Shown: positions 2,612 through 58,300 of the stretch, one piece after another
Position numbering within the stretch: position 1 is the stretch's first letter
Layout of the letters: every line of letters begins with the position of its first letter
Assembly (NCBI GenBank): GCA_947631575.1
Contig: CANRLW010000005.1
Span: 4,264-68,263, forward strand
Reading direction: 5' to 3'
DNA: 64,000 nucleotides
DNA from: an uncultured Clostridia bacterium
GTDB taxonomy: Bacteria > Bacillota > Clostridia > Oscillospirales > Ruminococcaceae
Program-made: the position numbers and the translations under genes
The notes under the pieces: generated by a model
What the model was told of the DNA's origin: nothing
Seen by the model: the letters and a program-made list of their open reading frames with translations, nothing else
Database searches by the model: none

Positions 2612-2974
2612 TAAGGGGGGACCCTTTTGAAAAAGGGTCCCCCCTTAAACCCCCTCCCAAAACTTTTATGTGCCGCCGCTGACGCGGCGGACGAAAGGCG
2701 AAAACCGCTGTAATAAGTAATAAGTTGTTTTGAGCGGCGAACCACTTTTATTCTTAAAACCACATAACGGGCGGCGCACAAAAGTTTTTTGAAGGAGAGT
2801 CCAGAGAGGAAACTTTTTTGAAAAAAGTTTCCTCTCTGGCAGGGGTGCGGGGACGGAGTCCCTGCGTTCTTCCCCCTTCCCCTTCGGGGAAGGGGGTCAG
2901 GGGGTTAGGGCGAATTAACGTTATTTAGAAAAATACCGTTTGAAAAGAACCACAAATAGATTTGTATACAAGAT
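2612..2974. repeat. Composite intergenic repeat locus: two inverted copies of hairpin module A, module B, degenerate MITE-like end
   Basis: GGGGACCCTTTTGAAAAAGGGTCCCC (2612-2680, minus sense) and CCAGAGAGGAAACTTTTTTGAAAAAAGTTTCCTCTCTGG (2801-2839); CCCCTTCCCCTTCGGGGAAGGGG at about 2872-2895; homologous copies elsewhere in window. Confidence 0.85.
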
Positions 2975-3008
2975 GAGGCAAGAACCGAAGTTCTTGCCTC
3001 TTTCTTCT
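2975..3008. terminator. Intrinsic terminator hairpin
   Basis: GAGGCAAGAAC-CGAA-GTTCTTGCCTC followed by TTTCTTCTT, between convergent genes. Confidence 0.75.
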
Positions 3009-3014
3009 TAACAA

Positions 3015-3284
3015 TTACATTACCTCGTGCTTTACACGAGCCTTTTCTTCGGCGCGCTTTGCGTTGTTGAAACGATCGAGCGTTCCTACGAGATAACCCG
3101 TTATCCTGCGGATACGCTGGAAAGGAACTTCCGCAAAGCTGTACTTTGCGTTTACATAGCCGCCGTCAAGCTCAAGCTCGATAGATCTGAGCGTCTTTTC
3201 GGGGTACTTCTCCTTCGCCTCGTTGATGTAATACTGAATTTCAGCTTCTGAAAGGCTTCCGCCCATAACGTTAATATCAATCAT
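3015..3284 (-). CDS. Small protein resembling the C-terminal glycyl-radical segment of anaerobic (class III) ribonucleotide reductase NrdD
   Basis: RIRRITGYLVGTLDRFNNAKRAEEKARVKH matches the NrdD C-terminus; ATG 3284 behind AGGAG. Confidence 0.75.
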   Translation of the reverse strand: MIDINVMGGSLSEAEIQYYINEAKEKYPEKTLRSIELELDGGYVNAKYSFAEVPFQRIRRITGYLVGTLDRFNNAKRAEEKARVKHEVM

Positions 3285-3396
3285 TTTTATCAATCTCCTA
3301 TCAATATTTTTGGGGTGTGATTAGAGTATAACACAATATCTTGTATATGTCAATTAGCAAAATACACAATTTTATTATAATTTTTTTGTACAAGCT

Positions 3397-4503
3397 TTAG
3401 ACAACGACCTTGTTCTTTCCGCTGTTTTTCCCCTCGTAAAGCCGTTTATCGGCAACCGATATAAGCATATCCATATATGTAGAAGACTGAGCGCCCGAAT
3501 TTATTTTAAGCTCTGTATAATTTGCAAGTCCAAATGTCATACTTACATTGATATTTTCTTCATCATAAACAAGACCGAGCTTGTTTATGTGCGATCTTAT
3601 TTTTTCAGTGCGGGCGAGGCAGTCGTTTCTTGTGCCTATAAGTATCATCAGAATTTCTTCGCCGCCCCAACGTACCGCAATGTCTTCCTCTCTGACTTCA
3701 TCAAGAAATACCTTTGCGACATTTTTCAGCACTATATCTCCGCAGTCGTGACCGTAGGTGTCGTTTATCTTCTTGAAATCGTCTATGTCGCCCATTATAA
3801 CGCAAAAGCTCTCTTCTTTCTTCATGAGCTCGTCAAAATAACCCCACAGGGCATGGCGGTTGTAAAGTCCGGTGAGCGCGTCATGTTCGGCTATGTATTC
3901 AAGCTCGTCGTTCTTTTTGCCAAGCTCTCTTATCAGCCCGGAGATCTCCGCACAGAACATCAGCGTAAATGCGCACAGGCAGACCATTGCGAAGAATATA
4001 TTGACGGTTTTCATTATGATCGTACCCGTAGCATTCAGGGTATGAATATTCATCAGCTCATAGAACGGACCGAAAATATTGTCGAAAACAACGCTTATTA
4101 TCAGCAGAATGACCGACGCGGACGTAAACAGAACGATCTGCTTTCTGAACTTTTCCCTGCTGCCGTAAAAGAACAGGCAATATGCCGCGATGGGAATTGT
4201 CAGCAGATAGTAAACATAAAAACCCACATCTACTCCGAGAAACAGCGTGCAGAGAAAAGCATGTACAACTATTTCGGAATAGATAGCGTTTATCCAGTTG
4301 TCTGCGTGCTCGGATACAGTGCCTTTGTCGCAGGCAGCCGCGCAGCATATGTAAAGGGTTACGCTCAGGACATTAAATCCCGCCAGCAAAAAATAACTAA
4401 GCGATGCAAATTCTATCAGAAAGGTCAGATGCGTCACGGCACAGCAAATACAGATGAGCCTGAATTTATTATCGACAGAAAATTTTGACGCATCAATTTT
4501 CAT
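3397..4503 (-). CDS. Membrane-bound diguanylate cyclase
   Basis: Hydrophobic N-terminal half; HDALTGLYNR, DIDDFKKINDTYGHDCGD, I-site REED and RWGGEEI active site. Confidence 0.9.
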   Translation of the reverse strand: MKIDASKFSVDNKFRLICICCAVTHLTFLIEFASLSYFLLAGFNVLSVTLYICCAAACDKGTVSEHADNWINAIYSEIVVHAFLCTLFLGVDVGFYVYYLLTIPIAAYCLFFYGSREKFRKQIVLFTSASVILLIISVVFDNIFGPFYELMNIHTLNATGTIIMKTVNIFFAMVCLCAFTLMFCAEISGLIRELGKKNDELEYIAEHDALTGLYNRHALWGYFDELMKKEESFCVIMGDIDDFKKINDTYGHDCGDIVLKNVAKVFLDEVREEDIAVRWGGEEILMILIGTRNDCLARTEKIRSHINKLGLVYDEENINVSMTFGLANYTELKINSGAQSSTYMDMLISVADKRLYEGKNSGKNKVVV

Positions 4504-4769
4504 CTTTTTCGCTCCCTCTTTAAATAAATTGCAGATATTTACCGATAACTAACACATACCTGCCCAAAACATTATAATCCCTAATACTAAAATTGTGATC
4601 TATTTCTTTCTCACAATAGGAAAAATTTTACAGACACGCTATAAAAATATCTTTTTATAATTATACCACAAACCGCGGAGAAAATCAACCGCTTTTTATG
4701 ACATCTACACAACTTATTGTTAAAAATTTTTTAGTGACACAACATTGAGTAAATTTTGCGCTTTTGGTA

Positions 4770-4798
4770 TTGACAAATTATTTTTTTTATGGTAATAT
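4770..4798 (+). promoter_or_regulatory. Sigma-A type promoter of rbr-rubredoxin operon
   Basis: TTGACA-17-TAATAT. Confidence 0.6.
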
Positions 4799-4838
4799 AA
4801 ATTTATCCAAAAATTTTATAAATCAGGAGGTTTTTATT

Positions 4839-5384
4839 ATGAAATATGTATGCCCTGTTTGCGGATACGTTTATATCGGCGAGTCCGCACCCGAGAAATG
4901 CCCTCAGTGCGGCGTTCCCGGAAGTAAGTTTAAGGTTATGGAAGAGGACAACAAGCTCGTGTTTGCCTGCGAGCATGAAGTTGGTATCATCGAGGGTGTT
5001 CCCGAGGAGATAGTTGAGGGTCTTCGCGCTAACTTTACGGGTGAGTGCACCGAGGTCGGAATGTATCTCGCTATGGCTAGAGCCGCTTTCAGAGAGGGCT
5101 ATGCCGAGGTCGGTATGTACTACGAAAAGGCTGCTTATGAGGAGGCTGAACACGCGGCAAAGTTCGCGGAGATGCTCGGAGAGGTAGTTTCCTCTTCTAC
5201 AAAGGAAAACCTCACAAAGCGTGTTGCCGCTGAACACGGCGCTACAGAAGGAAAGCTTGACCTCGCGAAAAAGGCTAAAGCGGCTAACCTCGACGCTATA
5301 CACGACACAGTTCACGAAATGGCTAAGGACGAGGCTCGCCACGGAAAAGCCTTTGAAGGTCTGCTCAACCGCTATTTCAAGTAA
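4839..5384 (+). CDS. rbr: Reverse rubrerythrin / NADH peroxidase
   Basis: N-terminal CPVCGY...CPQC rubredoxin-like domain then [23 protein letters not shown] di-iron motifs; ATG 4839 behind AGGAGG. Confidence 0.9.
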
Positions 5385-5404
5385 TTTTATCGGAGGAAAA
5401 TATT

Positions 5405-5560
5405 ATGGAAAAACACGTTTGCCCTTGCGGATATGTTTATGATCCCGCTGTAGGCGATCCCGACGGAGGAATTGCTCCGGGAACAAAGTGGGAGGATATT
5501 CCCGACGACTGGGTTTGCCCCGTTTGCGGACTGGGTAAGGACGCATTTGAGACGGAATAA
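5405..5560 (+). CDS. Rubredoxin (51 aa, not in ORF track)
   Basis: Hand translation [51 protein letters not shown]; RBS GGAGG. Confidence 0.92.
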
Positions 5561-5563
5561 ATT

Positions 5564-5595
5564 AAAAACGGACTGCTTTTCGGCAGTCCGTTTTT
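5564..5595 (+). terminator. Intrinsic terminator
   Basis: AAAAACGGACTGC-TTTTCG-GCAGTCCGTTTTT. Confidence 0.85.
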
Positions 5596-5615
5596 CAGTA
5601 TACAGAGTACAATAT

Positions 5616-5672
5616 TGAACAACCTTTCCTCTAAAACTCTAACCTCTTACCTCTTATTTCTTACCTCTAAAA
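5616..5672. repeat. Heptamer tandem-repeat module C (TAACCTC/TTACCTC)
   Basis: Near-identical reverse complement of 58173-58229. Confidence 0.85.
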
Positions 5673-5721
5673 AAGACCGGCGTTATAAAACACCGGTCGT
5701 TTTTTAACTTTTGGGGTTTGT

Positions 5722-6630
5722 TTATCCCTTTACTGCGCCGAGAGCTACGCCCTTGATGATGAACTTTGAAAGTACGAGGTAGATAGCTACAACGGGCAGG
5801 ATAGAAAGTGTAACAACAAGATATCTTGCGCCGTAGTCGCTGAGCTTATCTGCCTGAAGTACAGTCTGTACCATCATAGGCATTGTCTTTAAACTGGTGT
5901 CCGCTGTACCGAGGAGCAGGGAGGGCGTATAGAAGTTGTTCCAGCTCGTAACAAAAGCGAATATCGCCTGTACCGCAAAAGCGGGCTTAAAGATAGGAAG
6001 TGCTATCTGCAAAAACGTTCTGAACTCTCCGCAGCCGTCTATTCTAGCCGCCTCGACTATTTCGAGCGGGAAAGACGAGCGCATATACTGGAGCATATAG
6101 AATACTACAGCAGGAGCCGCTATTGACGGAAGAATAAGAGCTAAATAAGCCTGAGGTCCGCCATAGAGGTTTAACTGGATCATAAACTGCAGGAAACCTG
6201 TAGATACAACCTGCATCGGGATCATCATGACCGCAAGTATAAAGTTCGTCGCAAATTTCTTTGCTTTGAAATCATAAACTACAAGTCCGTATGCTGTCAT
6301 TCCCGAGAAGAATACAGTAAATATCGTTGAGCAGCCCGCAATGATAAGGCTGTTTCTATAGCCGTCCCAAAGACGGAAACTGCTCGCGAAAAATCCGCCG
6401 TATACCTCTGGGTTTGTAATGGTATCCCAGTTCTTTCCGAGAGCACCGCTGAAGAAACTGATACCGCTGTCAATTATCTCGGAGTTGGTTCTTGTCGCGT
6501 TTGTGATGATTACATAAAGCGGGAACAAGCAGATGATAGTAAGTATAATGCAGACTATCAATCTGATTATAGAGTGAGTCATCAAACTCCTCTTATACGC
6601 CTTGTTGGACTGATTATAAGAATCTGCCAT
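5722..6630 (-). CDS. Carbohydrate ABC transporter permease
   Basis: EAARIDGCGEFRTF (EAA motif), FVTSWNNF, multiple TM segments. Confidence 0.9.
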   Translation of the reverse strand: MADSYNQSNKAYKRSLMTHSIIRLIVCIILTIICLFPLYVIITNATRTNSEIIDSGISFFSGALGKNWDTITNPEVYGGFFASSFRLWDGYRNSLIIAGCSTIFTVFFSGMTAYGLVVYDFKAKKFATNFILAVMMIPMQVVSTGFLQFMIQLNLYGGPQAYLALILPSIAAPAVVFYMLQYMRSSFPLEIVEAARIDGCGEFRTFLQIALPIFKPAFAVQAIFAFVTSWNNFYTPSLLLGTADTSLKTMPMMVQTVLQADKLSDYGARYLVVTLSILPVVAIYLVLSKFIIKGVALGAVKG

Positions 6631-6647
6631 AATAATTCACTCTCCTC

Positions 6648-7634
6648 TCAACCCTTTTTATGTTTCTTCTTCGGCGCGGTAGAGTCGGTATTGAACTTGT
6701 TTACAATCATGCCGAGAACAAGCGTGATTATAAAGAGAATAACAGATGCCGCCGCAGAAAGTCCGTAGTTCTTTACGCCGCCCGTGGTAAATCTCTCGTA
6801 TACATATACCGCAACAGTTCTCAATGCAGGATTTATGTTGGTAGCACCGCCTGTATGGAGCATATACGGGATATCGAACATCTGAAGTCCGCCGATAAGA
6901 GAAGTAATTACAACGTAAATGAAGATGGGCTTAAGAATAGGCATTGTAATTCTGAAGAATGTACTCGGTCCGCTCGAACCGTCTATAGCCGCCGCCTCGT
7001 AAATAGAAGGATCTATTCCGAAAATACCCGACATCAGCAACAGCATGGTATTTCCGAACCACATCCACGTTTGTATCATCATAACAATTAGTCGCGCCGA
7101 CCATGCGTTACTTACAAACATGATAGGCTCATTTATTATGCCTGCGCCCACCAGGAAAGAGTTCAATGCGCCGTAGCTGCTGTCGCTGAATATCATAAGA
7201 AATATAGCCGCAATAGACGCCGCCGTGATGATGTTCGGCATATACATAACTACCTTAAAGAAACCGTTTCCGGGAGTTTTAATTCTGACGTCGGAGAACC
7301 ATACTGCAAGCAGGAGTGAAAGTACGATCTGAACCACGAAGTTTCCTACCCAAAGAATAAACGTGTTTCCTATGGAGGTCATGAACGTATCATGGTTAGA
7401 CTGTGCAAACAAAGTATCTCCGCCGAAAAGCAGGTTGGCGTAGTTTTCAAAGCCTACGAACTTATTAAGTCCCTTGGTGGAGAAACCCTGGTTTCCGAAA
7501 AAGCTCAGTCTTATGGTGTTTATCAAAGGATAAAACATAAACAATGCGTAAATGATAAAAAACGGCGCAATGAAGATATAGCCATATTTTGAATAGCTTA
7601 CCATCTTGTGCTGTTTTGTCGTCGCATTTGCCAT
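6648..7634 (-). CDS. Carbohydrate ABC transporter permease
   Basis: YEAAAIDGSS EAA motif, IGGLQMFD; start moved to the ATG at 7634 behind AGGGG. Confidence 0.9.
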   Translation of the reverse strand: MANATTKQHKMVSYSKYGYIFIAPFFIIYALFMFYPLINTIRLSFFGNQGFSTKGLNKFVGFENYANLLFGGDTLFAQSNHDTFMTSIGNTFILWVGNFVVQIVLSLLLAVWFSDVRIKTPGNGFFKVVMYMPNIITAASIAAIFLMIFSDSSYGALNSFLVGAGIINEPIMFVSNAWSARLIVMMIQTWMWFGNTMLLLMSGIFGIDPSIYEAAAIDGSSGPSTFFRITMPILKPIFIYVVITSLIGGLQMFDIPYMLHTGGATNINPALRTVAVYVYERFTTGGVKNYGLSAAASVILFIITLVLGMIVNKFNTDSTAPKKKHKKG

Positions 7635-7690
7635 AAAAACACCCCTTTTGTTAAAAATTTTTTGTATATATTTTTTTGTCAAAAAAATCA

Positions 7691-7727
7691 ATATACTGCT
7701 TACGGGATTTCTCCCGTAAGCGTATAT
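7691..7727. terminator. Intergenic stem-loop between binding-protein and permease genes
   Basis: GCTTACGGGA-TTTC-TCCCGTAAGC; typical mRNA-stabilising/attenuating hairpin in ABC operons. Confidence 0.65.
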
Positions 7728-7774
7728 TGCAAAAAATCACTATTTTACAGCTATACCGTTTAACTAAATTCTAA

Positions 7775-9112
7775 TTAAACGATCTCGCCGTAGGTTTCAC
7801 TAACCTTAGCCTTGAACGCAGCAACAGCGTCGTCAACAGTTGCGTGCTTGCCGTTTATAGCATAATCCTGAACAGCCTGGTTGAATGCGCCCTTGATTAC
7901 AGAGTCATACTTTGTAACAGAAAGGTTAACCTTGTCAGCACTCTTGTAGAGTACGCCGAACTGGTGGATACCGTCCTTGAAGAGCTTGTTTGTAAGAGTA
8001 GTATCTTTTGCTACTTCTTCCATAACCTTGCTGTTGTTCATAAGGTCGCCGCTCTTCTTCGAGTACTCTGCCATTGTATCTTCGTTGATAGAGAATGTTT
8101 CGATCCACTTCTTAGCGAGGCTCTTGGAGTTGCACTTAGAAGTTACCTGCATATATGTGCCGCCCCAATACCAGCTTGCAGGACCTTCGCAAAGACCGAG
8201 AACGCCTGTCTCGTCGCCTGCAAAGTTGTTAGCTATAGAAGTTCCGTTATCAACAACGCCCCATGTAGGTGCAAAGTCGCCGAGAGCCTTACCTTCTCTG
8301 ATTACGTTGTACCAAGGATCTGACCACTGAGTTTCCTTTGTAACATAGCCCTTATCAACATACTTCTTAACCATATCGATAAAGTCGGTAGCAAAGCTGT
8401 CTACAACGAGCTTGCCGTCCTGAACCCACTGAGAAGTTCTCTCGCACTGCTTAACCTGCCAGAGACCGCCCTCTGTTGCGCAGAGAGCAACCCCGTGTTC
8501 GGTAGCGAGCTTTTCAGCTGTCTGCTCGAAAGTATCCCAGTCTTTTACAAGAGCCTGCATCTCATCGGGAGTCTTAACTCCGAGATATTCTTCAGCATAG
8601 TCTGCTCTGTAAACAAATCCGCCGGGAGTAGCCTGCCATGTAGCGCCGACAAACTGACCAGCCTCGTTTGTACCTACCTTAATAGTATAAGGATAAGCAT
8701 TCGGGAAATCGCTCTCGCTAAGTCCGAGAGAAGAAAGCGGTGTTACATAGTCGTTTTCGTTGTTTGCATAAAGTGCTGTCCAGTCAGCATCGCAGAAGAT
8801 AAGGTCTGCGTCGCCGGAGCCATCGAGATAAGCGCCGTAGTTATCACGTGCATCTTCGCCCTTTGCACCAACCTTTGCCCAAACTACTTTCTCCTTGGGT
8901 GTACCTGTAGCCTCGCAGAAGTAGTCTATAAGACCCTGCATATCGCTGTTTGTTTCCCAAGCCAGAATGGTCAAGGTATCATCGTCATCTGTAAGTTCTG
9001 CTACGGGCAACGTATGAGGACCTGTAGCCCCGTCGTTGTTACAGCCTGAGAAAGACACTGCCGCAAGAGCAGCCGCAGAAGCTAAAACTCCTGCCAATAT
9101 TCTTTTCTTCAT
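7775..9112 (-). CDS. Sugar ABC transporter substrate-binding lipoprotein
   Basis: Lipobox FSGC, YRADYAEEYLG, WGGTYMQV; adjacent to two permeases. Confidence 0.88.
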   Translation of the reverse strand: MKKRILAGVLASAAALAAVSFSGCNNDGATGPHTLPVAELTDDDDTLTILAWETNSDMQGLIDYFCEATGTPKEKVVWAKVGAKGEDARDNYGAYLDGSGDADLIFCDADWTALYANNENDYVTPLSSLGLSESDFPNAYPYTIKVGTNEAGQFVGATWQATPGGFVYRADYAEEYLGVKTPDEMQALVKDWDTFEQTAEKLATEHGVALCATEGGLWQVKQCERTSQWVQDGKLVVDSFATDFIDMVKKYVDKGYVTKETQWSDPWYNVIREGKALGDFAPTWGVVDNGTSIANNFAGDETGVLGLCEGPASWYWGGTYMQVTSKCNSKSLAKKWIETFSINEDTMAEYSKKSGDLMNNSKVMEEVAKDTTLTNKLFKDGIHQFGVLYKSADKVNLSVTKYDSVIKGAFNQAVQDYAINGKHATVDDAVAAFKAKVSETYGEIV

Positions 9113-30238: not shown

Positions 30239-30825
30239 GCAAAAACCGTAAAAATGCGCTGGTAGACAGTATACAGTGTACGCATTATCCGCCTTCGGCG
30301 GAAAACGCTATGTACAGTAGTCAGTAATATGTGTCCGCAAACGCGGACTTTTTTTGATTGTTTTTAGAATTTAACCTCTTATTTCTTTTATAACAAACTT
30401 GCTTTAATTCGGGAAACAGCTTTTGGATCCTAACTCTAACTTCTTACCTCTAATTTCTAACCTCTAAAAGCGCAAAAACCGTAAAAATGCGCCGGCAGAC
30501 AGTATACAGTGTACGCATTATCCGCTCGGCGGAAAACGCTATGTACAGTAGTCAGTTATGGTGTCCGCCTTGCGGCGGATTTTTTTAGATTGTTTTTAGC
30601 TGATAGGCACACGAACCGTAAAACGGGTAAACGTGGTTCTTTTCAAACGTTGTTTCTCTCAATAACGCTCACTCGCCCTATCCCCCTTCCCCTTCCCCGA
30701 AGGGAAAGGGGGGATATGCGGGGCGCTGGCGCGCCCCGTACCCCGCCTTGGGCGCAGCCTCCTCGAAACCCTGAAAAAAACTTTTTATACAGACTGAGGT
30801 TAGAGTTCAAACTCTAACCTCTTAT
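30239..30825. repeat. Repeat cluster downstream of tRNA-Thr: two about 129-bp direct repeats (30239-30367, 30472-30599), heptamer module C, module B, MITE-like end
   Basis: GCAAAAACCGTAAAAATGCGC...GTACGCATTATCCGC...TTGTTTTTAG repeated at 233-bp offset. Confidence 0.88.
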
Positions 30826-50754: not shown

Positions 50755-50975
50755 GCGCATTTTTGCGGTTTTAGAGGTAAGAAATAAGAGGTCAGAAATG
50801 AGCGAACAACTGTTCGGCACAAATTCTAACCTCTTACCTCTAACCTCTAACTTCTAATGCCTAACCTTTACAAAAAAGATTTTTTCGGTCGAGCCAAAAG
50901 AAATCGTCCCGCAACAGCGTACGGGACGAACCGGGTGCACGCATTATCCGCCTGCGGCGGAAAACGCTGCATTGC
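50755..50975. repeat. Composite repeat locus (inverted heptamer arms, module D) abutting the att remnant
   Basis: TAGAGGTAAGAAATAAGAGGTCAG (50772-) versus CTAACCTCTTACCTCTAACCTCTAACTTC (50826-); GCATTATCCGCCTGCGGCGGAAAACGCT as at 30285 and 30515. Confidence 0.8.
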
Positions 50976-51145
50976 TCTGCTGGCGGAAAGAGAGGGATTG
51001 AATTTAACCAATTTTTTAGTTTTGCTTTTGTCCACTTATCTTTTAAATTCCTTGATATTATGCGGAATTTTCTGTTTGCCCGTTTATGGAAAATTAAGGA
51101 AAAACCAACGAATTTCGACCAAAACGGGGTAAAAACGGGGCAAAT

Positions 51146-51709
51146 TTATAACCCAAATTTCTTGACCGTCCTATAAAAAGTGTTTGGTTTTAAGCCAACT
51201 TTCTTCATTGTTTCGGTAGCTGTTTGTTTGCCCGACCGCCAAAGTGCGCACTCTTTGCGGAGAAGTTTTTCATCATAAGAAACAGGCTTTCTTCCCGCAT
51301 ATTTGCCCTGCTGTTTAGCAATTTCAATTCCCTCACGCTGACGCTCTTTAATGACCTCACGCTCAAATTCGGCAAGCGCTCCGAAGATTGTGAGCATTAA
51401 CTTGCCCTGCGGCGTTTTCGTATCGAGGTTTTCTTTCTGCGAAATAACTGCAACGCCTTTAGCTTGAAGTTTGTCAATTATCGTCAGTAAATCTCTGACG
51501 CTCCTTGCAAGTCTTGCATACTCCGTAACAATCACGGTATCGCCCTCTCTTACATAGTCCAACATTGCCGACAGTTGAGGTCGCGCCATATTCTTCCCCG
51601 ACAGCTTATCGAGGAACACCTTGTCGCAGGGTATCTTCTTGAACGCCTCTAACTGCCGAGCCTCGTTCTGGTCGATACTGCTTACTCTCGCATAACCTAT
51701 GTTTGCCAT
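51146..51709 (-). CDS. Serine recombinase, resolvase/invertase family
   Basis: IGYARVSSIDQ catalytic Ser, DKLSGK, RPQL, RLARS, AEFEREVIKERQREG, C-terminal HTH. Confidence 0.95.
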   Translation of the reverse strand: MANIGYARVSSIDQNEARQLEAFKKIPCDKVFLDKLSGKNMARPQLSAMLDYVREGDTVIVTEYARLARSVRDLLTIIDKLQAKGVAVISQKENLDTKTPQGKLMLTIFGALAEFEREVIKERQREGIEIAKQQGKYAGRKPVSYDEKLLRKECALWRSGKQTATETMKKVGLKPNTFYRTVKKFGL

Positions 51710-51724
51710 ATTAACACCTCCAGA

Positions 51725-51880
51725 TATGTTATGTCATAATTATATCACTTTTTATGAAATATGTCAATATACACCATAACAAATGTTTTGACATAGATTT
51801 TGACATTTTCACTAAAGTATACTTCAATGACATATAAAAACAAAGTACTTCGCTTGTTGTGATTCCCGCCAACGACATAA
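51725..51880 (-). promoter_or_regulatory. Resolvase promoter overlapping a probable res site
   Basis: TTGACA-17-TATAAT on minus (51739-51767) embedded in repeated and inverted (T)GACATA motifs. Confidence 0.6.
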
Positions 51881-52134
51881 ACTGTTTTCTGGCTATTTTT
51901 TACAAATTTAACCAGAAAAGTAGAAAATTACAATAACAATATTGACAATAAGCGCAATATGTGGTAGAATGTATTAAAACAAGAGAGGAGAAGTATAAGT
52001 TTACTGTATCTTTTAAAAATTTAACATTTTGAATATGTTTCCCACTGGGCGTTTACACGCTTGGTGGGAATCTTGCATTTTAGGGAAAATGTACATTGAT
52101 TTGGTACAAAAAATTAAAGAAAGGGGTTTGTTTT

Positions 52135-52311
52135 ATGGAATTTTCGGCGGAACAAATTAACGACAAAATTAAGGAATTAAAAAGAGCGTATGCGCGTTCT
52201 TATGCGGCACAACATAAAGAGCAGCGCAAGGAACAGCAACGCCGTTGTTGGGAACGCAAGGCTCTCGCGGCTTTGGAACAGGAAATGAAAGAGCAAGAAA
52301 AAACCGATTAA
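52135..52311 (+). CDS. Small basic helical protein upstream of rep (58 aa)
   Basis: MEFSAEQ...RCWERKA...; RBS AAGGGG; upstream promoter TTGACA-17-TAGAAT at 51942. Confidence 0.65.
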   Translation: MEFSAEQINDKIKELKRAYARSYAAQHKEQRKEQQRRCWERKALAALEQEMKEQEKTD

Positions 52312-52406
52312 AAAGAAATGGCGGACTTTCGCCCGCCGAAAAACTGTGTGATGAAGGTCTGTAAACTTCACCGTTGTGATGAAGGTCTGTAAACTTCACC
52401 GTTTGC
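52308..52406 (-). ncRNA. Candidate counter-transcribed small RNA (about 95 nt) with two tandem 28-nt repeats
   Basis: Minus-strand TTGACA(52436-41)-17-TATAAT(52413-18); repeats TGTGATGAAGGTCTGTAAACTTCACCGT x2 (52347-52402); GGCGG-GCGAAAGT-CCGCC hairpin plus U tract on minus. Confidence 0.55.
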
Positions 52407-52561
52407 ATAATTATTATATCAAATATCTGGCAATATGTCAATATATTTTTTTGGAATTAACCGCAAAAATGGTTTACAAAGTACAGACCTTTATCTTCCT
52501 ACTTATATATGTTTATAGTACGTAAAAAAAGACAAATTAGTAGAAAGATGAGGTAATTTTA

Positions 52562-53866
52562 ATGCAAAAAATAGATAAATTCTTTTACGACGGACTGACA
52601 TTTACAAGGCAAAAAGAAAACTTTACTGAAATATGTAATTCAGAATTTGACTACGAAACTTTCGTCTTTCCTGCAACTTCAGACGAAAAAGTTATGGTAA
52701 ACGTAAAATTGAAATCCTGCTATCCTAAAGACCTCTTGGAAATTAATGAACTGAAAGAAGTTTACGCATATTATGACAAATTGGAGAGGGTTCATTTATT
52801 TGGCGAAAGTGAAATAGAAGAAAGCACAACTATATCTTCATCTTCATCAAGCGACAATAGCAATTCGCAAAAGCAAAAAGGTGAAAAAACAAAACGCGAA
52901 GAACCAAACGTTGCACTAATTGATGACACATACTACGTCAAGGGCTATGAAGCAGTTGAAGTTGATTTGTATAATGGTGAATTAGCATATTACGATTTGG
53001 AAAACGATGAATTAAGTAAATTCAACTTTCGAGGTTTGCAACAATTGCGAAGAGGTCATAGAGAAAAAACTAAGGACGTTTTGTTCAATTGCATCGAAGG
53101 CAAAACGCTGTTTCTCTCTTTCAATTCAGGCAATAAGTATATTCTTGACACCCTTCAAAAAATAGTTCGAGCATTTGAAAAATGGATTAAAAGAAAATAC
53201 GCAGACAACCTTAAATTTGCGGTTTTGGTATATGAACCCAACCCAGACGGCAGTTGGCACTTCCACGCTCTTATAACTTTCAATACCGTTCCCGCCGACT
53301 TTGATAAAGTTTTTGCGGACTGGGCAGACAAGTATAACAGCAAGCGCGGGATAAAAGACCAGACAAACGTGCAGCTCCTACAAACAAAGAACGATGTGCG
53401 CTTGACGTGGCTTTATTTGGACGCGACCTCTGAAAAGAAGAAAGATTATGCCGTTTTTTATCCCCCTCGGTTTAAGAATATCGTTATTTTCGGCGAGAGA
53501 ATTTCGGTACCGTCCATCAAAGTGACGGGCGAAACATTGCAGGCTTTTATAAGCGAAACCAACGCAGAGCAAATAGACGGACAGACAATGATAGTTTCAG
53601 ACACACAAACAGGAGAAGTTTTATACGAGTATGGCGAATGGTGGTTCACGGTTGATAAGAGCGTTTTGCGCGACTTAGTTACGAAAACTATAATGGATGC
53701 GATAATGTGTGACAATGAGGATATACTCACATTTTCACTATCCCGTATCGCCGAAAATGGGGGTGCAGGGGGAACGCCTGCCACAATACCTTTTGCCCGT
53801 CAGGGCGAAAGTAGTATTGTGCCTACTGTGCCACCCTATCAACTTTTAGCAAGCAAAGGAGCTTAA
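52562..53866 (+). CDS. Divergent HUH-superfamily rolling-circle replication initiator-like protein
   Basis: Motif 1-like TLFLSF, motif 2 YEPNPDGSWHFHAL, motif 3-like WLYLDA; position between a cop-like ORF and mob. Confidence 0.65.
   Translation: MQKIDKFFYDGLTFTRQKENFTEICNSEFDYETFVFPATSDEKVMVNVKLKSCYPKDLLEINELKEVYAYYDKLERVHLFGESEIEESTTISSSSSSDNSNSQKQKGEKTKREEPNVALIDDTYYVKGYEAVEVDLYNGELAYYDLENDELSKFNFRGLQQLRRGHREKTKDVLFNCIEGKTLFLSFNSGNKYILDTLQKIVRAFEKWIKRKYADNLKFAVLVYEPNPDGSWHFHALITFNTVPADFDKVFADWADKYNSKRGIKDQTNVQLLQTKNDVRLTWLYLDATSEKKKDYAVFYPPRFKNIVIFGERISVPSIKVTGETLQAFISETNAEQIDGQTMIVSDTQTGEVLYEYGEWWFTVDKSVLRDLVTKTIMDAIMCDNEDILTFSLSRIAENGGAGGTPATIPFARQGESSIVPTVPPYQLLASKGA
53759..53840. promoter_or_regulatory. 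Putative MOB-V oriT
   Basis: Hairpins TTTTGCCC-GTCA-GGGCGAAA and AGTAG-TATTGTGC-CTACT just upstream of the mob gene, the usual position of MOB-V oriT. Confidence 0.45.
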
Positions 53867-53870
53867 TTAA

Positions 53871-55124
53871 ATGGGAAATAATGGAAAATGTTTATCGGTA
53901 TCAATGAGCCAAGGGACGGTCGCACTCAATCACAATCGCAGAGAGCATACCCCGAAAAATGCAAACGCAAACCTCTCACATCACAATGTTTATATCAAAA
54001 CTTGTTCGGATTTAGAAAAAGCGTTTAATGAGATTTTTGGAAATGATGTTGCAAATTACAACGAAAAGCAAACCCGCAGTGACCGCCGAATTAAAAATTA
54101 CTATCAGAAAATTCATTCAAGTGAGGGAAAAGAAAATACGGCTAAGACCTGCTATGAATATGTATTTATGTTCGGCAACAGTGAAGATAACAACATAGCA
54201 GAGTTGGGCGAGAATGAAAGCGTATGGGACAGCAGGAATATGCTATTGGAACTTGAAAAGGCATTTGAAGAAAAATATCCAAACCTGAAAGTCGTTTCTG
54301 CGGTGGTGCATATGGACGAGCAAACGCCACATCTGCATATTGATTTTATTCCCGTTGCGACAGGTTACAAAAAAGGAATGGAACATCAATGTTCTTTAAC
54401 AAAGGCTCTTGAAAATTTAGGTTTTCAGAAAACCGAAAAACTTGCAGTTCAAAATTGGCAGGACGATGCAAAACAACTGATGACAGATATTCTTAACAAG
54501 TACGGATATGAACGCGAGTACAAGAATAACACCGAGAAACATTTGTCTGTCGACAAATTCAAACTCCTAAAGGAAAACGAAGAACTTCTCGAAGAAACTG
54601 AAATCAACAAAAAGGTTGTTCGCGAAAGTCGGGAACAGGTTGCCAAGATAAAAGCATTACAAGAGAAACTACAAACTGAAACCGAAGAATTTGTTTCATC
54701 ACTAACGCCTGCACCCACCAAAAAAGTTAAAACGCTTTTTGGAGAAAAGGAAGTTGAAAAATCTGCCGAGGAGTTACAGCGCGACAAAGAAATCTTAGCG
54801 GCACAGTCCGCACTAAAAGCCTGCGCCACTCGACAAGAGAAACAGGAGATTAAGGAAAAGCAACTGAAAGAATTGTCAAAGACCGTTGAAAAAGAAGCAC
54901 TGCAAAATGAAATAGAGCGAAAGACGCTTGTTGAAGAAAAACAGGCTCTTGAAAAAGAAAAGCAGTCATTTGCTATGGCGGTAGCATTAAAGGCAAGACA
55001 AATAGTTGACAAAGTATTGCGCTCACTTGGCATTAGACTGAATAGAGGACACGATTTGACCGAACAGATAAATTTAGCAATCCAGAAAGAAAGGAACGGT
55101 GAAGAACAGTGGAAACAACGATAA
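53871..55124 (+). CDS. mobV: MobV/Pre family relaxase (plasmid recombination enzyme)
   Basis: NHNRRE, CYEYVF, VVHMDEQTPHLHIDFIP, coiled-coil C-terminus. Confidence 0.92.
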   Translation: MGNNGKCLSVSMSQGTVALNHNRREHTPKNANANLSHHNVYIKTCSDLEKAFNEIFGNDVANYNEKQTRSDRRIKNYYQKIHSSEGKENTAKTCYEYVFMFGNSEDNNIAELGENESVWDSRNMLLELEKAFEEKYPNLKVVSAVVHMDEQTPHLHIDFIPVATGYKKGMEHQCSLTKALENLGFQKTEKLAVQNWQDDAKQLMTDILNKYGYEREYKNNTEKHLSVDKFKLLKENEELLEETEINKKVVRESREQVAKIKALQEKLQTETEEFVSSLTPAPTKKVKTLFGEKEVEKSAEELQRDKEILAAQSALKACATRQEKQEIKEKQLKELSKTVEKEALQNEIERKTLVEEKQALEKEKQSFAMAVALKARQIVDKVLRSLGIRLNRGHDLTEQINLAIQKERNGEEQWKQR

Positions 55125-55384
55125 CGATTGAGCCTATGTCAGTCTCTCACTTCTCGGAAAATGCGCAGAAACGTTATTCGGTCAGTTTTTCAACGACTAT
55201 ACCGCTTGAAATCCCTGTGCAGGACGCTTGGGAAATCGTTAGGCAGGTAATCAGTATATGCTTTCCTACCGAGAACGTAAGGCTCGAAACGCTGACAGAG
55301 GACTTAGCGCAAGACCGATATGCCTTTTCCGTCAGCGGAAACAGGATAACGCCAAAACGACAAGAGGTGACAATTTACATATAA
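55109..55384 (+). CDS. Hypothetical protein
   Basis: 91-aa ORF overlapping the mobV stop. Confidence 0.5.
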   Translation: METTITIEPMSVSHFSENAQKRYSVSFSTTIPLEIPVQDAWEIVRQVISICFPTENVRLETLTEDLAQDRYAFSVSGNRITPKRQEVTIYI

Positions 55385-55756
55385 CGTAAACTTGGACAAA
55401 CGAGGAATGGGGTTTGAAGATTGTTTCCGTACCGACAGCCACACCGAACAACAAAGCTCTTTTCTCCCTCTCGCCGCGCACGCCGAAAGGCGGTATGAGC
55501 CGCGACAGCGGCGATTTGGGTAAGCCGCAGGCTGGTAGATAAGATACATAAACTCGGTTTTCAATCAACAATAAGCGCTCAAAAATGCGTTCTATCGTGC
55601 TTATAAAGTAAGGCTTATAAGTTTATCGAATAAGCTCTGAAACGCAAATATAGGGCAATTTAGACGGCAAATATGATATATTAAAATACAAAACGAATAA
55701 AATACTTGACATTTCAAAGATAATAATCTAAAATAAAGCTGAAAGGATAAGTATAT

Positions 55757-56050
55757 ATGAGAAAAAATAAAGTTAATATACCAGCAGTTACAAGTTTAAA
55801 GACCGCTTTGGAGATTTATTACACAAAAATACAACTGAACAATGCAGACGTAGCCGAGCTGTTCGGCAACCACGCTCAAAGCACTATTTCCGCATTAAAA
55901 AAGGTTGCAAGAGATTATATGACAGAAAACAAAATTATGTTATACAATTCGAGAGATGTAAACACCAAAGCAGCGTATGCTGCGTGGGGTATCGACATAG
56001 CAGAAATCGAAAGGCGATACAAGAAAAGCAAAGAAATTGAACGAGTATAA
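55757..56050 (+). CDS. Small protein upstream of integrase, possible excisionase/regulator
   Basis: 97 aa, HTH-like NNADVAELFG...STISALK; promoter TTGACA-17-TAAAAT at 55706-55734; RBS AAGGA. Confidence 0.65.
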   Translation: MRKNKVNIPAVTSLKTALEIYYTKIQLNNADVAELFGNHAQSTISALKKVARDYMTENKIMLYNSRDVNTKAAYAAWGIDIAEIERRYKKSKEIERV

Positions 56051-56064
56051 AGGAGTAATTACAA

Positions 56065-57209
56065 ATGCCTATAACAATTGATAATCGCATTAAGAAGAAA
56101 AACGGCGTTTCGCGTTACCGTGTCCGCATAAACTATACTGATACTAACGGCAAACAAAATCAGATAGAACGGTTGGTATGGGAAAAGCAGATGCGGAGAT
56201 TGTCGAGCGTCAATTGGAAATGGAGTTCAAGAACAAAAAGCAGGTCAAATCAAGCAAAATTACCGTTGAAGAACTGTTTTTGATGTATGCCGAGTATCAC
56301 GCGACTGAAACCCGCAAAACCTCACACTATGCTGTAATGAAACGCTTAAAACTCTGGGTTTTGCCTTATTTTCAAGATAAACGTCTTGACAAACTCTCAC
56401 AACAGGACTTCGCAGAATGGAAAGTCAAGATAAACGGAACAAATTTATCTATTGCAAGCAAACAAAACGTTTATTGTGCTTTCGTTGCTATGCTCAATTA
56501 TGCTGTTAAGTTAGAAATGATACCTAAAAACGGACTTGCTGTTCTCGGAAACTTCAAAGACAGTTCTATTCCAGATAAAACAAACGAGGAGTTTCAATAC
56601 TACACCGCCGAACAATTTCAAAAATACATCTCGGTCGCAAAGTCTGAATGTAAAACAATAGAGGATTGGGACTTTTATGTTTTCTTCTGTATAGCCTTTT
56701 TTACGGGCGCAAGAAAGGGCGAAATACACGCTCTGAAATGGTCTGACATAGAGGGTAATATAATGCATATTCGGCGCAGTATTGCTCAAAAACTCAAAGG
56801 AGATGACGTTGAAACTGCGCCTAAAAACAAGAGCAGCATAAGGGATTTACAATTGCCTGTGCCGTTAATGAAAGTTTTAGACGAACACAAACAACGTCAG
56901 ATAGAGTATGCAGGCGAACATTTTAGTGAGGATTTACGAATATGCGGTTGCACCAGACCACTTCGTGATACGACCGTAGACAAGCGGAACAGGAAATATG
57001 CCGAGAAAGCGGGTTTACCTCGTATTCGCATACACGATTTCAGACATTCTCACGTTTCCCTGCTTGCAAATGAGGGAATAAATATACAAGAAGTCGCCCG
57101 CCGAATGGGGCATAGCACAGTTCAGGAAACTTGGAACAGATACAGCCATCTATATCCCCGCGAAGAAGAACGTGCTGTAAATGTGCTGAATAGCATATCG
57201 GTTGACTAA
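56065..57209 (+). pseudogene. Tyrosine integrase split by a -1 frameshift near 56180-56190
   Basis: ORF 56065 (RBS AAGGAG; RYRVRINY arm-binding-like N-terminus) overlaps ORF 56178-57209 with the full catalytic set TGARKGE, PKNKSS, HDFRHS, MGHS, RYSH. Confidence 0.85.
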
Positions 57210-57276
57210 ACTTTTTCGGGGTTTTTTCGGGGTAACAAAAAAGGAAACCGCATAACAATGCGATTTCCTGCCAATG

Positions 57277-57367
57277 TGGCGGAAAGAGAGGGATTCGAAC
57301 CCTCGAACGGGTTTAGCCGTTACACGATTTCCAATCGTGCGCCTTAGACCAGCTCAGCCATCTTTCC
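57277..57367 (-). tRNA. tRNA-Ser(GGA)
   Basis: GGAAAGATGGCTGAGCTGGTCTAAGGCGCACGATTGGAAATCGTG...GGTTCGAATCCCTCTCTTTCCGCCA; long variable arm; upstream TTGACA-17-TATAAT. Confidence 0.96.
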
Positions 57368-58129: not shown

Positions 58130-58300
58130 TGTATTTCTCTAAATAACGTTTTTTCGCCCTATCCCCCTGCCCTTTTAGAGGTTAGATGTAAGAGGTAAGA
58201 GGTTAGAGTTTTAGAGGAAAGGTTGTTCGTTTTTCGTAAGTTTTCTTACCTCTAACTTCTAACCTCTAGACCCTGAAAAGAAACTTTTTATACAGACAGA
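58130..58300. repeat. Composite repeat locus (partial module B, inverted heptamer arms, MITE-like end)
   Basis: TTAGAGGTTAGATGTAAGAGGTAAGAGGTTAGAG versus CTTACCTCTAACTTCTAACCTCTAG; CCCTGAAAAGAAACTTTTTATACAGAC as at 30769-30795. Confidence 0.85.

Follow-up and report, generated by a model that had tools for sequence, protein, structure and literature searches.

An apparently cargo-free integrative mobilizable element, most likely immobilized, at the 3' end of tRNA-Ser(GGA) in an uncultured gut Clostridia bacterium

The stretch of 64,000 nucleotides analyzed here (hereafter the window; positions 4,264 to 68,263 of contig CANRLW010000005.1, assembly GCA_947631575.1, from an uncultured Clostridia bacterium) contains an integrative mobilizable element (IME) that was probably inserted into the 3' end of a tRNA-Ser(GGA) gene by a tyrosine integrase. 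The copy present in this genome is most likely stuck in the chromosome, its integrase gene being split by a frameshift. IMEs are a known kind of element and this one is a further example; less common are the lack of recognizable cargo, a replication initiator (Rep) that belongs to a rare family, and the packing of four DNA-processing enzymes into 6.3 kb. An earlier note on this DNA had proposed a 6296-bp unit bounded by a 19-bp repeat of the tRNA-Ser 3' end, an IME-type element with four DNA-processing enzymes and no recognizable cargo, and our analysis bears out all of these points: the repeat is exact, with two copies, and domains, motifs and attachment (att) repeats are all in place. The gene content was also described correctly as regards the resolvase, the small open reading frames (ORFs), the Rep of the HUH class and the MobV relaxase, but the integrase is not the single ORF that had been assumed, since one nucleotide has been deleted from it.

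The element and its insertion site

The element is a 6,296-bp unit (one repeat plus the interior) bounded by an exact 19-bp direct repeat at 50981-50999 and 57277-57295. The 19-mer, TGGCGGAAAGAGAGGGATT, occurs in two exact copies in the window, as compared with 0.00 expected from 100 shuffles. The right copy, the proximal att repeat, represents the last 19 nt, CCA included, of the target gene, a minus-strand tRNA-Ser(GGA) at 57277-57367 that was called by ARAGORN and matches the tRNA family of Rfam with 56.2 bits. The left copy is the distal att repeat. The tRNA gene stays intact because the element carries its own copy of these last 19 nt. The host genome (1.88 Mb in 88 contigs) belongs to a genus of at least 101 species of small-genome gut Clostridia and holds the element once. 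The G+C content of the element is 39.4%, compared to 42-44% in the flanks.

The 123 nt that abut the distal repeat (50858-50980) are a member of a multi-copy family of tRNA-trailer repeats that has no match in Rfam. In the sister species G010, an 88%-identical homolog of this flank (50864-50980) is joined straight to the 3' end of tRNA-Ser(TGA), with the same junction as at 50980|50981, and in another species of the set (G021) copies of the repeat come after tRNA-Gly(CCC). Since these copies directly follow tRNA genes, the left boundary reads as native tRNA-downstream DNA, which supports its placement, although it does not amount to a strict orthologous empty site. The tRNA-Ser(GGA) orthologs of G010 and of a second sister species, G007, are 100% identical to the target gene and unoccupied, and the DNA downstream of them is unlike the left flank of the window, save for a common palindromic repeat. 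Relatives show only in part the clean joining of tRNA-Ser to position 50980 that the earlier note had called for: the junction exists in G010, but at the TGA isoacceptor, and the empty tRNA-Ser(GGA) genes of G007 and G010 lead into different DNA. The multi-copy nature of the trailer repeat also ruled out the left flank as a unique probe for the empty site.

The surroundings of the insertion site are rich in repeats. Within the trailer repeat, a 32-nt core (50939-50970) recurs with 100% conservation at numerous sites, frequently contig ends, across many species of the genus; in the window itself, the family is found again at 30276-30309, downstream of tRNA-Thr. Palindromic repeats of the TTAGAGGTAAGA type at 50764-50870 and 58168-58290 flank the whole region of tRNA and element. 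These palindromes form a genome-wide family with dozens of copies in the genome of the window (G000) and in G007, G010 and G014, and do not represent the ends of a larger element. The distance between tRNA-Thr(GGT) and tRNA-Ser(GGA) is 4.9 kb in G007 (L024, contig C71, 164-5194), with a GH5-like gene in between, and 27 kb in the window (30076-57367). The 15.4-kb gene of a 5118-aa adhesin therefore lies within a variable inter-tRNA region.

A frameshift in the integrase gene

The tyrosine integrase gene (plus strand, 56065-57209) is divided between two reading frames. The frame 56065-56283 encodes the N-terminal 38 residues (MPITIDNRIKKKNGVSRYRVRINYTDTNGKQNQIERLV...), and the frame 56178-57209 encodes the catalytic domain together with a SAM-like core-binding domain. 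An alignment to the intact gene (383 aa) of a sister copy in the related species G014 (see below) attributes the shift to the deletion of a single G at 56179-56182, which changes GTATGGGGAAAAGC to GTATGGGAAAAGC (GGGG to GGG). Three independent public assemblies cover the site (L029, L031 and L032; 99.99-100% identical to the window), and the GGG allele recurs in every one of them; the frameshift is therefore a real mutation of the lineage rather than an assembly error. The 343-aa frame that remains matches PF00589 (E=4e-20) and PF14659 and keeps R178, H286/R289, H312 and Y322. Of the traits of heterobivalent tyrosine integrases that act at tRNA 3' ends (Tn916 family, class III), the core-binding and R-H-R-Y catalytic domains are present; the putative arm-binding N-domain has no match in Pfam and was recognized by eye.

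Doublets of the form (A/T)nCGGGG were found in both arms of the element. The left arm (51000-51145) contains one at 51121-51140 (AAAACGGGG / TAAAAACGGGG), and the int-proximal arm (57210-57276) contains another at 57212-57232, followed by a hairpin at 57242-57269. The int-proximal doublet and hairpin are conserved beside every integrase of the same clade that we examined, at tRNA-Ala, tRNA-Pro and tRNA-Ser alike. As read from the sequence, the doublets are likely arm-type integrase sites, which would need the lost N-terminal domain. The host genome harbors no second integrase of the clade, the next best being 28% identical. Because the arm-binding N-terminus has been cut off, the arm sites are conserved and a second clade integrase is missing, immobilization is the most likely state of the element copy in the window, which is probably no longer able to move. 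The event would be recent, because all other genes and signals are intact.

Genes for replication, mobilization and resolution

The 434-aa Rep (plus strand, 52562-53866) carries LFLSFN, HFH at residues 233-235 and Y285. An exhaustive HMMER search of 1.84 billion proteins returned only 43 representatives of its family. When the protein was aligned with 41 homologs, the rolling-circle motifs FxTxT, EPxxDGSWHxHxI and YLNPTSxKKR appeared in that order, and H233, H235 and Y285 were invariant or nearly so across the 42 sequences. PF23343 (REP_ORF2-G2P) was matched by 27 of the 42 family members and Phage_GPA by three (E<=0.001 for PF23343), with no other families matched; a relative 48% identical to the Rep of the window reaches 28.8 bits on PF23343, above the cut-off. 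In the AlphaFold model, the core (residues 182-286) has the order beta-alpha-beta-beta-alpha-beta-alpha, HFH being located on a strand and Y285 on the final helix. A Foldseek search with this model gave compact superpositions only with HUH endonucleases (2x3g, 7vg8, 6we0, 7kij and 4er8; SIRV1 ORF119, Reps of geminiviruses and circoviruses, and TnpA-REP), with probabilities of 0.97-1.0 and weak E-values (1e-3 to 7e-2); given the quality of the model, the fold match is no more than suggestive. No relative was found in 72,556 plasmids with tblastn, or in the PDB by sequence or profile. We accept the protein as an HUH initiator from a family that is rare and whose apparent kin in Pfam are of the phage type and not of the plasmid type.

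The MobV relaxase (417 aa, plus strand, 53871-55124) begins 4 bp downstream of rep, and this spacing leaves no intergenic origin of transfer (oriT) between the two genes. The protein matches PF01076 with 54.9 bits against a cut-off of 25.5 (E=1e-14) as well as NF041497, and is ~35% identical to the Mob/Pre proteins of 3-6-kb plasmids. It aligns to MobM (4lvi) through the HxDE..PHxH motif, here HMDEQTPHLH at residue 147, and its HxxR motif is HNRR at residue 21. None of the eight ORFs of the element carries the type IV secretion system domains of a mating pore or coupling protein. The host assembly (97.8% complete) likewise contains no VirD4 and no VirB4-like (AAA_10) protein above the cut-off, metagenome bins being prone to lose mobile elements.

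The small serine recombinase (187 aa, minus strand, 51146-51709) matches PF00239 (E=4e-46) and the DNA invertases of phrog_125 (E=4e-64), with the catalytic serine in YARVSS (residues 6-11) and a C-terminal helix-turn-helix (HTH). Its nearest PDB entries are the Gin invertase and the gamma-delta/Tn3 resolvase, the alignment to gamma-delta extending over residues 1-183, and it is 100% identical to the protein of the G014 copy. The absence of Recombinase and Zn-ribbon domains places it in the resolvase/invertase class. At the DNA level, similarity of the element to plasmids and phages is confined to short matches of the integrase or resolvase genes (65-79%).

Small open reading frames and control signals

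None of the ORFs of the element matches the defence models of PADLOC, and the three small ones (orf71, orf91 and orf97) find no family indicative of cargo in Pfam, NCBIfam or PHROGs and no informative match even at E<=10. The statement that the element has no recognizable cargo accordingly stands, with a reservation for orf91, described below. The first of these ORFs, orf71 (plus strand, 52096-52311), appears to belong to the rep module and to encode a small, basic and helical protein, probably of 58 aa from the ATG at 52136, which is the call made in independent assemblies. It has no CopG, ribbon-helix-helix or other family match and is 62% identical to an ORF upstream of the 48%-identical Rep, which belongs to a second element of G014. 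The gene of orf91 (91 aa, plus strand, 55109-55384) overlaps the 3' end of mob. It differs from its G014 copy by 29 nt and just 5 aa, with a ratio of nonsynonymous to synonymous divergence (dN/dS) of 0.06, and these values identify it as a real gene under purifying selection; it has no family and no homolog beyond the G014 copy. Finally, orf97 (97 aa, plus strand, 55757-56050) precedes the integrase gene, and homologs with 34-49% identity stand beside clade integrases in 7 of 11 loci of the same genus or order, the G014 copy excluded. Position and co-occurrence suggest an integrase partner, either an excisionase/directionality factor or a regulator. No family matches orf97 and its AlphaFold 2 model was unusable.

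A consensus scan revealed strong -35/-10 pairs ahead of each predicted transcription unit. A divergent region (51739-51970) contains putative promoters for res (minus strand, 51767 to 51739, 12/12 consensus positions) and for orf71-rep-mob (plus strand, 51942-51970, 11/12), and a third candidate precedes orf97-int (plus strand, 55706-55734, 11/12). Three 41-nt "direct repeats" that had been considered as res sites were rejected, as they correspond to three strong promoters; no target site of the resolvase was located in the element. A further, perfect promoter match on the minus strand (52441 to 52413, 12/12) reads across two identical 28-nt repeats (52347-52402) into a terminator (52337-52320). 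Promoter, repeats and terminator fit a small counter-transcript (52315-52441) opposite the leader of orf71-rep.

Between orf91 and the promoter of orf97-int lies a conserved GC-rich non-coding block (55393-55550), a candidate for the single-strand origin (sso) or for oriT. This block is ~95% identical in the second element of G014 though the Rep there is only 48% identical, and 400 other genomes of the order lack it. Between the block and the orf97 promoter, a 168-bp stretch at 55518-55696 is present in the window and missing from the first, closely related copy of G014.

A mosaic sister copy in a rabbit-gut species

Among 185,579 species genomes, this Rep was found in just one other, G014, a metagenome-assembled genome from rabbit gut (CANQVE01, "Lapin-032 bin103") that belongs to the same genus as the host of the window. 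The G014 copy (L026, contig C39, 4680-10898) is 92% identical overall to the element and clearly mosaic. Blocks of 98-100% identity (window positions 51081-52580, 53281-53880, 55781-56180 and 56681-57280) alternate with blocks of ~70-80% identity that comprise the N-terminal half of Rep, Mob, orf91 and the core-binding domain of the integrase. Synonymous divergence (dS) is 0.02-0.05 for res, orf71, the C-terminal part of Rep, orf97 and the catalytic domain of the integrase, and ranges from 0.5 to saturated in the remaining blocks. All genes of the element show dN/dS values of at most 0.17, in agreement with purifying selection. The chromosomal flanks of the two species are only ~91% identical. 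Blocks with dS of 0.02-0.05 within so divergent a background indicate recent horizontal exchange of the element, or of parts of it, between species.

G014 also contains the second small element mentioned above (L027, contig C34, ~2800-7800), with an unrelated tyrosine integrase, a 122-aa ORF, MobV, a 480-aa Rep 48% identical to that of the window, and the orf71 homolog. It has no resolvase.

A switch of target tRNA

The sister copy in G014 occupies a different tRNA gene. It sits in the 3' end of tRNA-Ala(CGC), between two exact copies of the 19-bp core AATCCCCTTATCTCCACCA; in the same orientation, the core of the window is AATCCCTCTCTTTCCGCCA. The Ser and Ala cores differ at positions 7, 8, 10, 12 and 16, four of which fit one 7-bp window, the fifth being the discriminator base. 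Immediately inward of the cores, the arms of the two copies hardly differ. Identity between the two integrases is 100% for the catalytic domain and 70% for the core-binding domain.

The wider integrase clade (~60% identity) shows the same diversity of targets, its members lying ~80 bp from tRNA-Ala(CGC), tRNA-Pro(CGG) or tRNA-Ser(GGA) in other species of the genus. Integrases from Ala and Pro sites (L054, L058 and L059, in genomes G016, G018 and G036) differ at 9 of 378 residues (97.6% identity). In this pair, as in that of the window and G014, each element has a repeat that fits the tRNA it occupies. Distal repeats confirm clade elements of 33.5 kb at tRNA-Ala and of 25.6 kb at tRNA-Ser; consequently, the int-att module is common to large elements and to the 6.3-kb element described here. 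Across the clade there was no signal that core-binding domains sort by target tRNA, the core-binding domain being 47-54% identical to those of all members.

The tRNA repertoires of the two hosts are also of note. G014, which is 99% complete, has no tRNA-Ser(GGA), and the genome of the window has no full tRNA-Ala(CGC) gene. The latter genome does hold an exact copy of 22-23 nt of the tRNA-Ala(CGC) 3' end (L092, contig C42, ~2500-2590). A CGCATTGTTATGCGGTTT hairpin resembling the one in the int-proximal arm comes before it, and neither a tRNA body nor an integrase is near. This solitary copy is possibly the att scar of an element that was lost together with the tRNA-Ala gene.

Work on the integrase of phage mv4, a member of the Tn916 family that targets the 3' end of a tRNA-Ser, has shown that varied core-binding sites are tolerated provided that the 7-bp overlap is identical (bioRxiv 10.1101/2023.11.06.565760). 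Such tolerance, given a match of the overlap, would explain the switching of tRNAs seen here. Because four of the five core differences fall within one 7-bp window, retargeting in the clade may have proceeded by replacement of the strand-exchange overlap, whose position we place where the two cores differ. As a tentative proposal, which we regard as possible rather than probable, the tRNA 3'-end target of this clade would be naturally reprogrammable, through overlap replacement accompanied in this pair by a swapped core-binding domain, and the driver would seem to be whichever dispensable isoacceptor the host retains.

Distant relatives and known systems

Rep relatives with 22-28% identity occur on metagenome contigs from human gut, with a serine recombinase gene divergently upstream and MobV downstream. 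In one of them (L040, 7516-13481 of UPSY01000035), the upstream gene encodes a 562-aa large serine recombinase and a 231-aa small protein with a resolvase domain is encoded between the PF23343-like Rep and MobV, a layout that resembles Tn4451. Genes for IS256-like (Mutator-family) and Mu-like transposases adjoin this module. The arrangement supports the modular view taken in the earlier note, a Rep-MobV core being combined with different integration modules. It also bears on the suggestion of the earlier note that the resolvase was an added module. This is not clearly so, because a serine recombinase gene upstream of rep recurs in the distant relatives and need not be a late addition. Note however that the recombinase upstream in those relatives is a large one, which weakens the candidate explanation that resolvase, Rep and Mob form an ancestral unit.

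Canonical IMEs with a MobV relaxase include Tn5520, Tn4451, Tn6215 and IMESag-rpsI (PMC5704250). The same review, from 2017, states that IMEs often carry genes for rolling-circle replication initiators whose role in maintaining the excised form had never been studied, and that all IMEs then known carried cargo, Tn5520 excepted (PMC5704250). Tn5520 of Bacteroides fragilis is like the present element in being very small and in combining a MobV-family relaxase and a tyrosine recombinase without cargo (PMC5704250). Compared by description and not by sequence, it differs in having neither Rep nor resolvase and in belonging to a host of another phylum. In addition, Tn5520 is not known to be tRNA-specific. 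Among Firmicutes, IMEs with MobV, for example IMESag-rpsI and the MOBV1 elements that are abundant in gut Clostridia like Faecalibacterium, share with the element a tyrosine integrase together with MobV, insertion into a conserved gene at its 3' end, and presumably the use of the mating pore of a helper (PMC5704250, PMC12084326). Those IMEs usually carry cargo, whereas the element of the window has in addition a small serine recombinase and a separate HUH Rep from a rare family, and its integrase is broken.

Two other systems provide partial parallels. Plasmids of the pMV158 type (copG, counter-transcript, repB, mobM, sso) resemble the element in the MobV motifs that align to MobM and in the small ORF and candidate counter-transcript upstream of an HUH Rep. 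The differences are that the Rep of the window is not a Rep_2 protein and has no plasmid relative, that there is no CopG, no intergenic oriT upstream of mob and no CS-6 motif, and that the element is integrated and not free. The earlier note had seen in the element a rolling-circle plasmid backbone, in the order cop, counter-transcript, rep, oriT, mob and sso; a plasmid-like control region with a plausible counter-transcript can be upheld, but the differences just listed speak against the rest. Tn4451 and Tn4453, with the large serine recombinase TnpX, the resolvase-like TnpY and the MobV protein TnpZ, are paralleled by the distant Rep relatives from human gut, in which large serine recombinase, Rep, small resolvase-domain protein and MobV follow in this order. 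Of that layout, the window keeps a serine recombinase upstream of rep and a MobV downstream. The window has no large serine recombinase and has a tyrosine integrase at a tRNA gene instead, and its Rep is only 22-28% identical to those of the Tn4451-like relatives.

Alternative explanations

Several observations weigh against the proposal of an IME that has lost its mobility. The Rep of the window scores 24.3 bits on PF23343, below the cut-off of 27.8 bits, and its AlphaFold model is poor (pLDDT 48.6). No oriT, double-strand origin or sso was located in the element, no ssoA CS-6 motif occurs anywhere in it, and the non-coding block has neither a match in Rfam nor a thermodynamic folding signal (z-scores near 0). 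The small ORFs, orf91 above all, could be unrecognized cargo. No attP junction, any 19-bp core being allowed, was found in viral contigs, and this Rep occurs on five public contigs, every one of which has the element integrated at the same insertion site, with no circle. The latter pattern also counts against an element that is still mobile, an alternative that we consider unlikely. Mobility would require that -1 slippage on TGG-GAA-AAG restores the integrase or that the 343-aa fragment, perhaps together with a separate N-terminal peptide, suffices. The fragment has all the catalytic residues and might retain activity, slippage by -1 could occasionally take place on the A_AAG motif of the shift site, the two 19-bp repeats match perfectly, and the remaining genes and promoters are intact. 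However, a single ORF spans GGGG in the intact relative, which makes the shift a deletion instead of an ancestral recoding site; the arm-type repeats, conserved in both arms and across the clade, imply dependence on the N-domain; and the genome offers no other clade integrase that could help.

The remaining alternatives concern the nature of the element itself. It is very improbable that the small serine recombinase, and not the tyrosine integrase, drives movement or inverts a segment in parallel with the Tn4451-like relatives. The idea is suggested by the large serine recombinase that takes the same position upstream of rep in those relatives and by the DNA invertases that are the best PHROG and PDB matches of the protein. 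The length of 187 aa, the HTH at the C-terminus and the lack of both Recombinase and Zn-ribbon domains nevertheless place the protein in the resolvase/invertase class, whose members act within one molecule. Moreover, no convincing pair of inverted repeats bounds a segment inside the element, and a tRNA 3'-end repeat beside a tyrosine integrase is the standard signature of integrases of this kind. We find it scarcely credible that the element is what is left of an integrated single-stranded-DNA phage or of a phage satellite rather than a conjugatively mobilized element. PF23343 (ORF2/G2P) and Phage_GPA are the sole families that the Rep family matches, and the integrase clade is also present in the 25-33-kb elements, which may be prophages. 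Yet genes for coat, morphogenesis and packaging are absent, the MobV relaxase is complete with its catalytic motifs, 50,697 phage records gave no match beyond the integrase, and no relatives of the Rep are present in IMG/VR.

Proposed life cycle and significance

Taking the element as an IME whose copy in the window has been immobilized, the following life cycle can be proposed. The integrase, with the product of orf97, would excise a circle of 6,296 bp, which the HUH Rep would copy by a rolling-circle mechanism under the control of orf71 and the small counter-transcript. The small serine recombinase would resolve multimers. MobV would then nick oriT, the coupling protein and mating pore being borrowed from a conjugative helper, and the integrase would reinsert the element in the recipient. 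In the lineage of the window, the 1-nt deletion has cut the arm-binding N-terminus off the integrase and most likely left the copy stuck in the chromosome.

With this element, uncultured gut Clostridia provide a clear case of an IME that is close to minimal and apparently cargo-free, and in which a canonical MobV relaxase is accompanied by a separate HUH initiator of a rare family. The int/att system of phage mv4, which is heterobivalent, provides a further likeness, by description and not by sequence, in its use of the extreme 3' end of a tRNA gene, its asymmetric core and its arm-binding N-domain, of which the element would have a counterpart. The pair formed by the window and G014 copies constitutes a natural counterpart to the laboratory reprogramming of the mv4 integrase and a ready-made test of what sets target choice in integrases that act on tRNA 3' ends.

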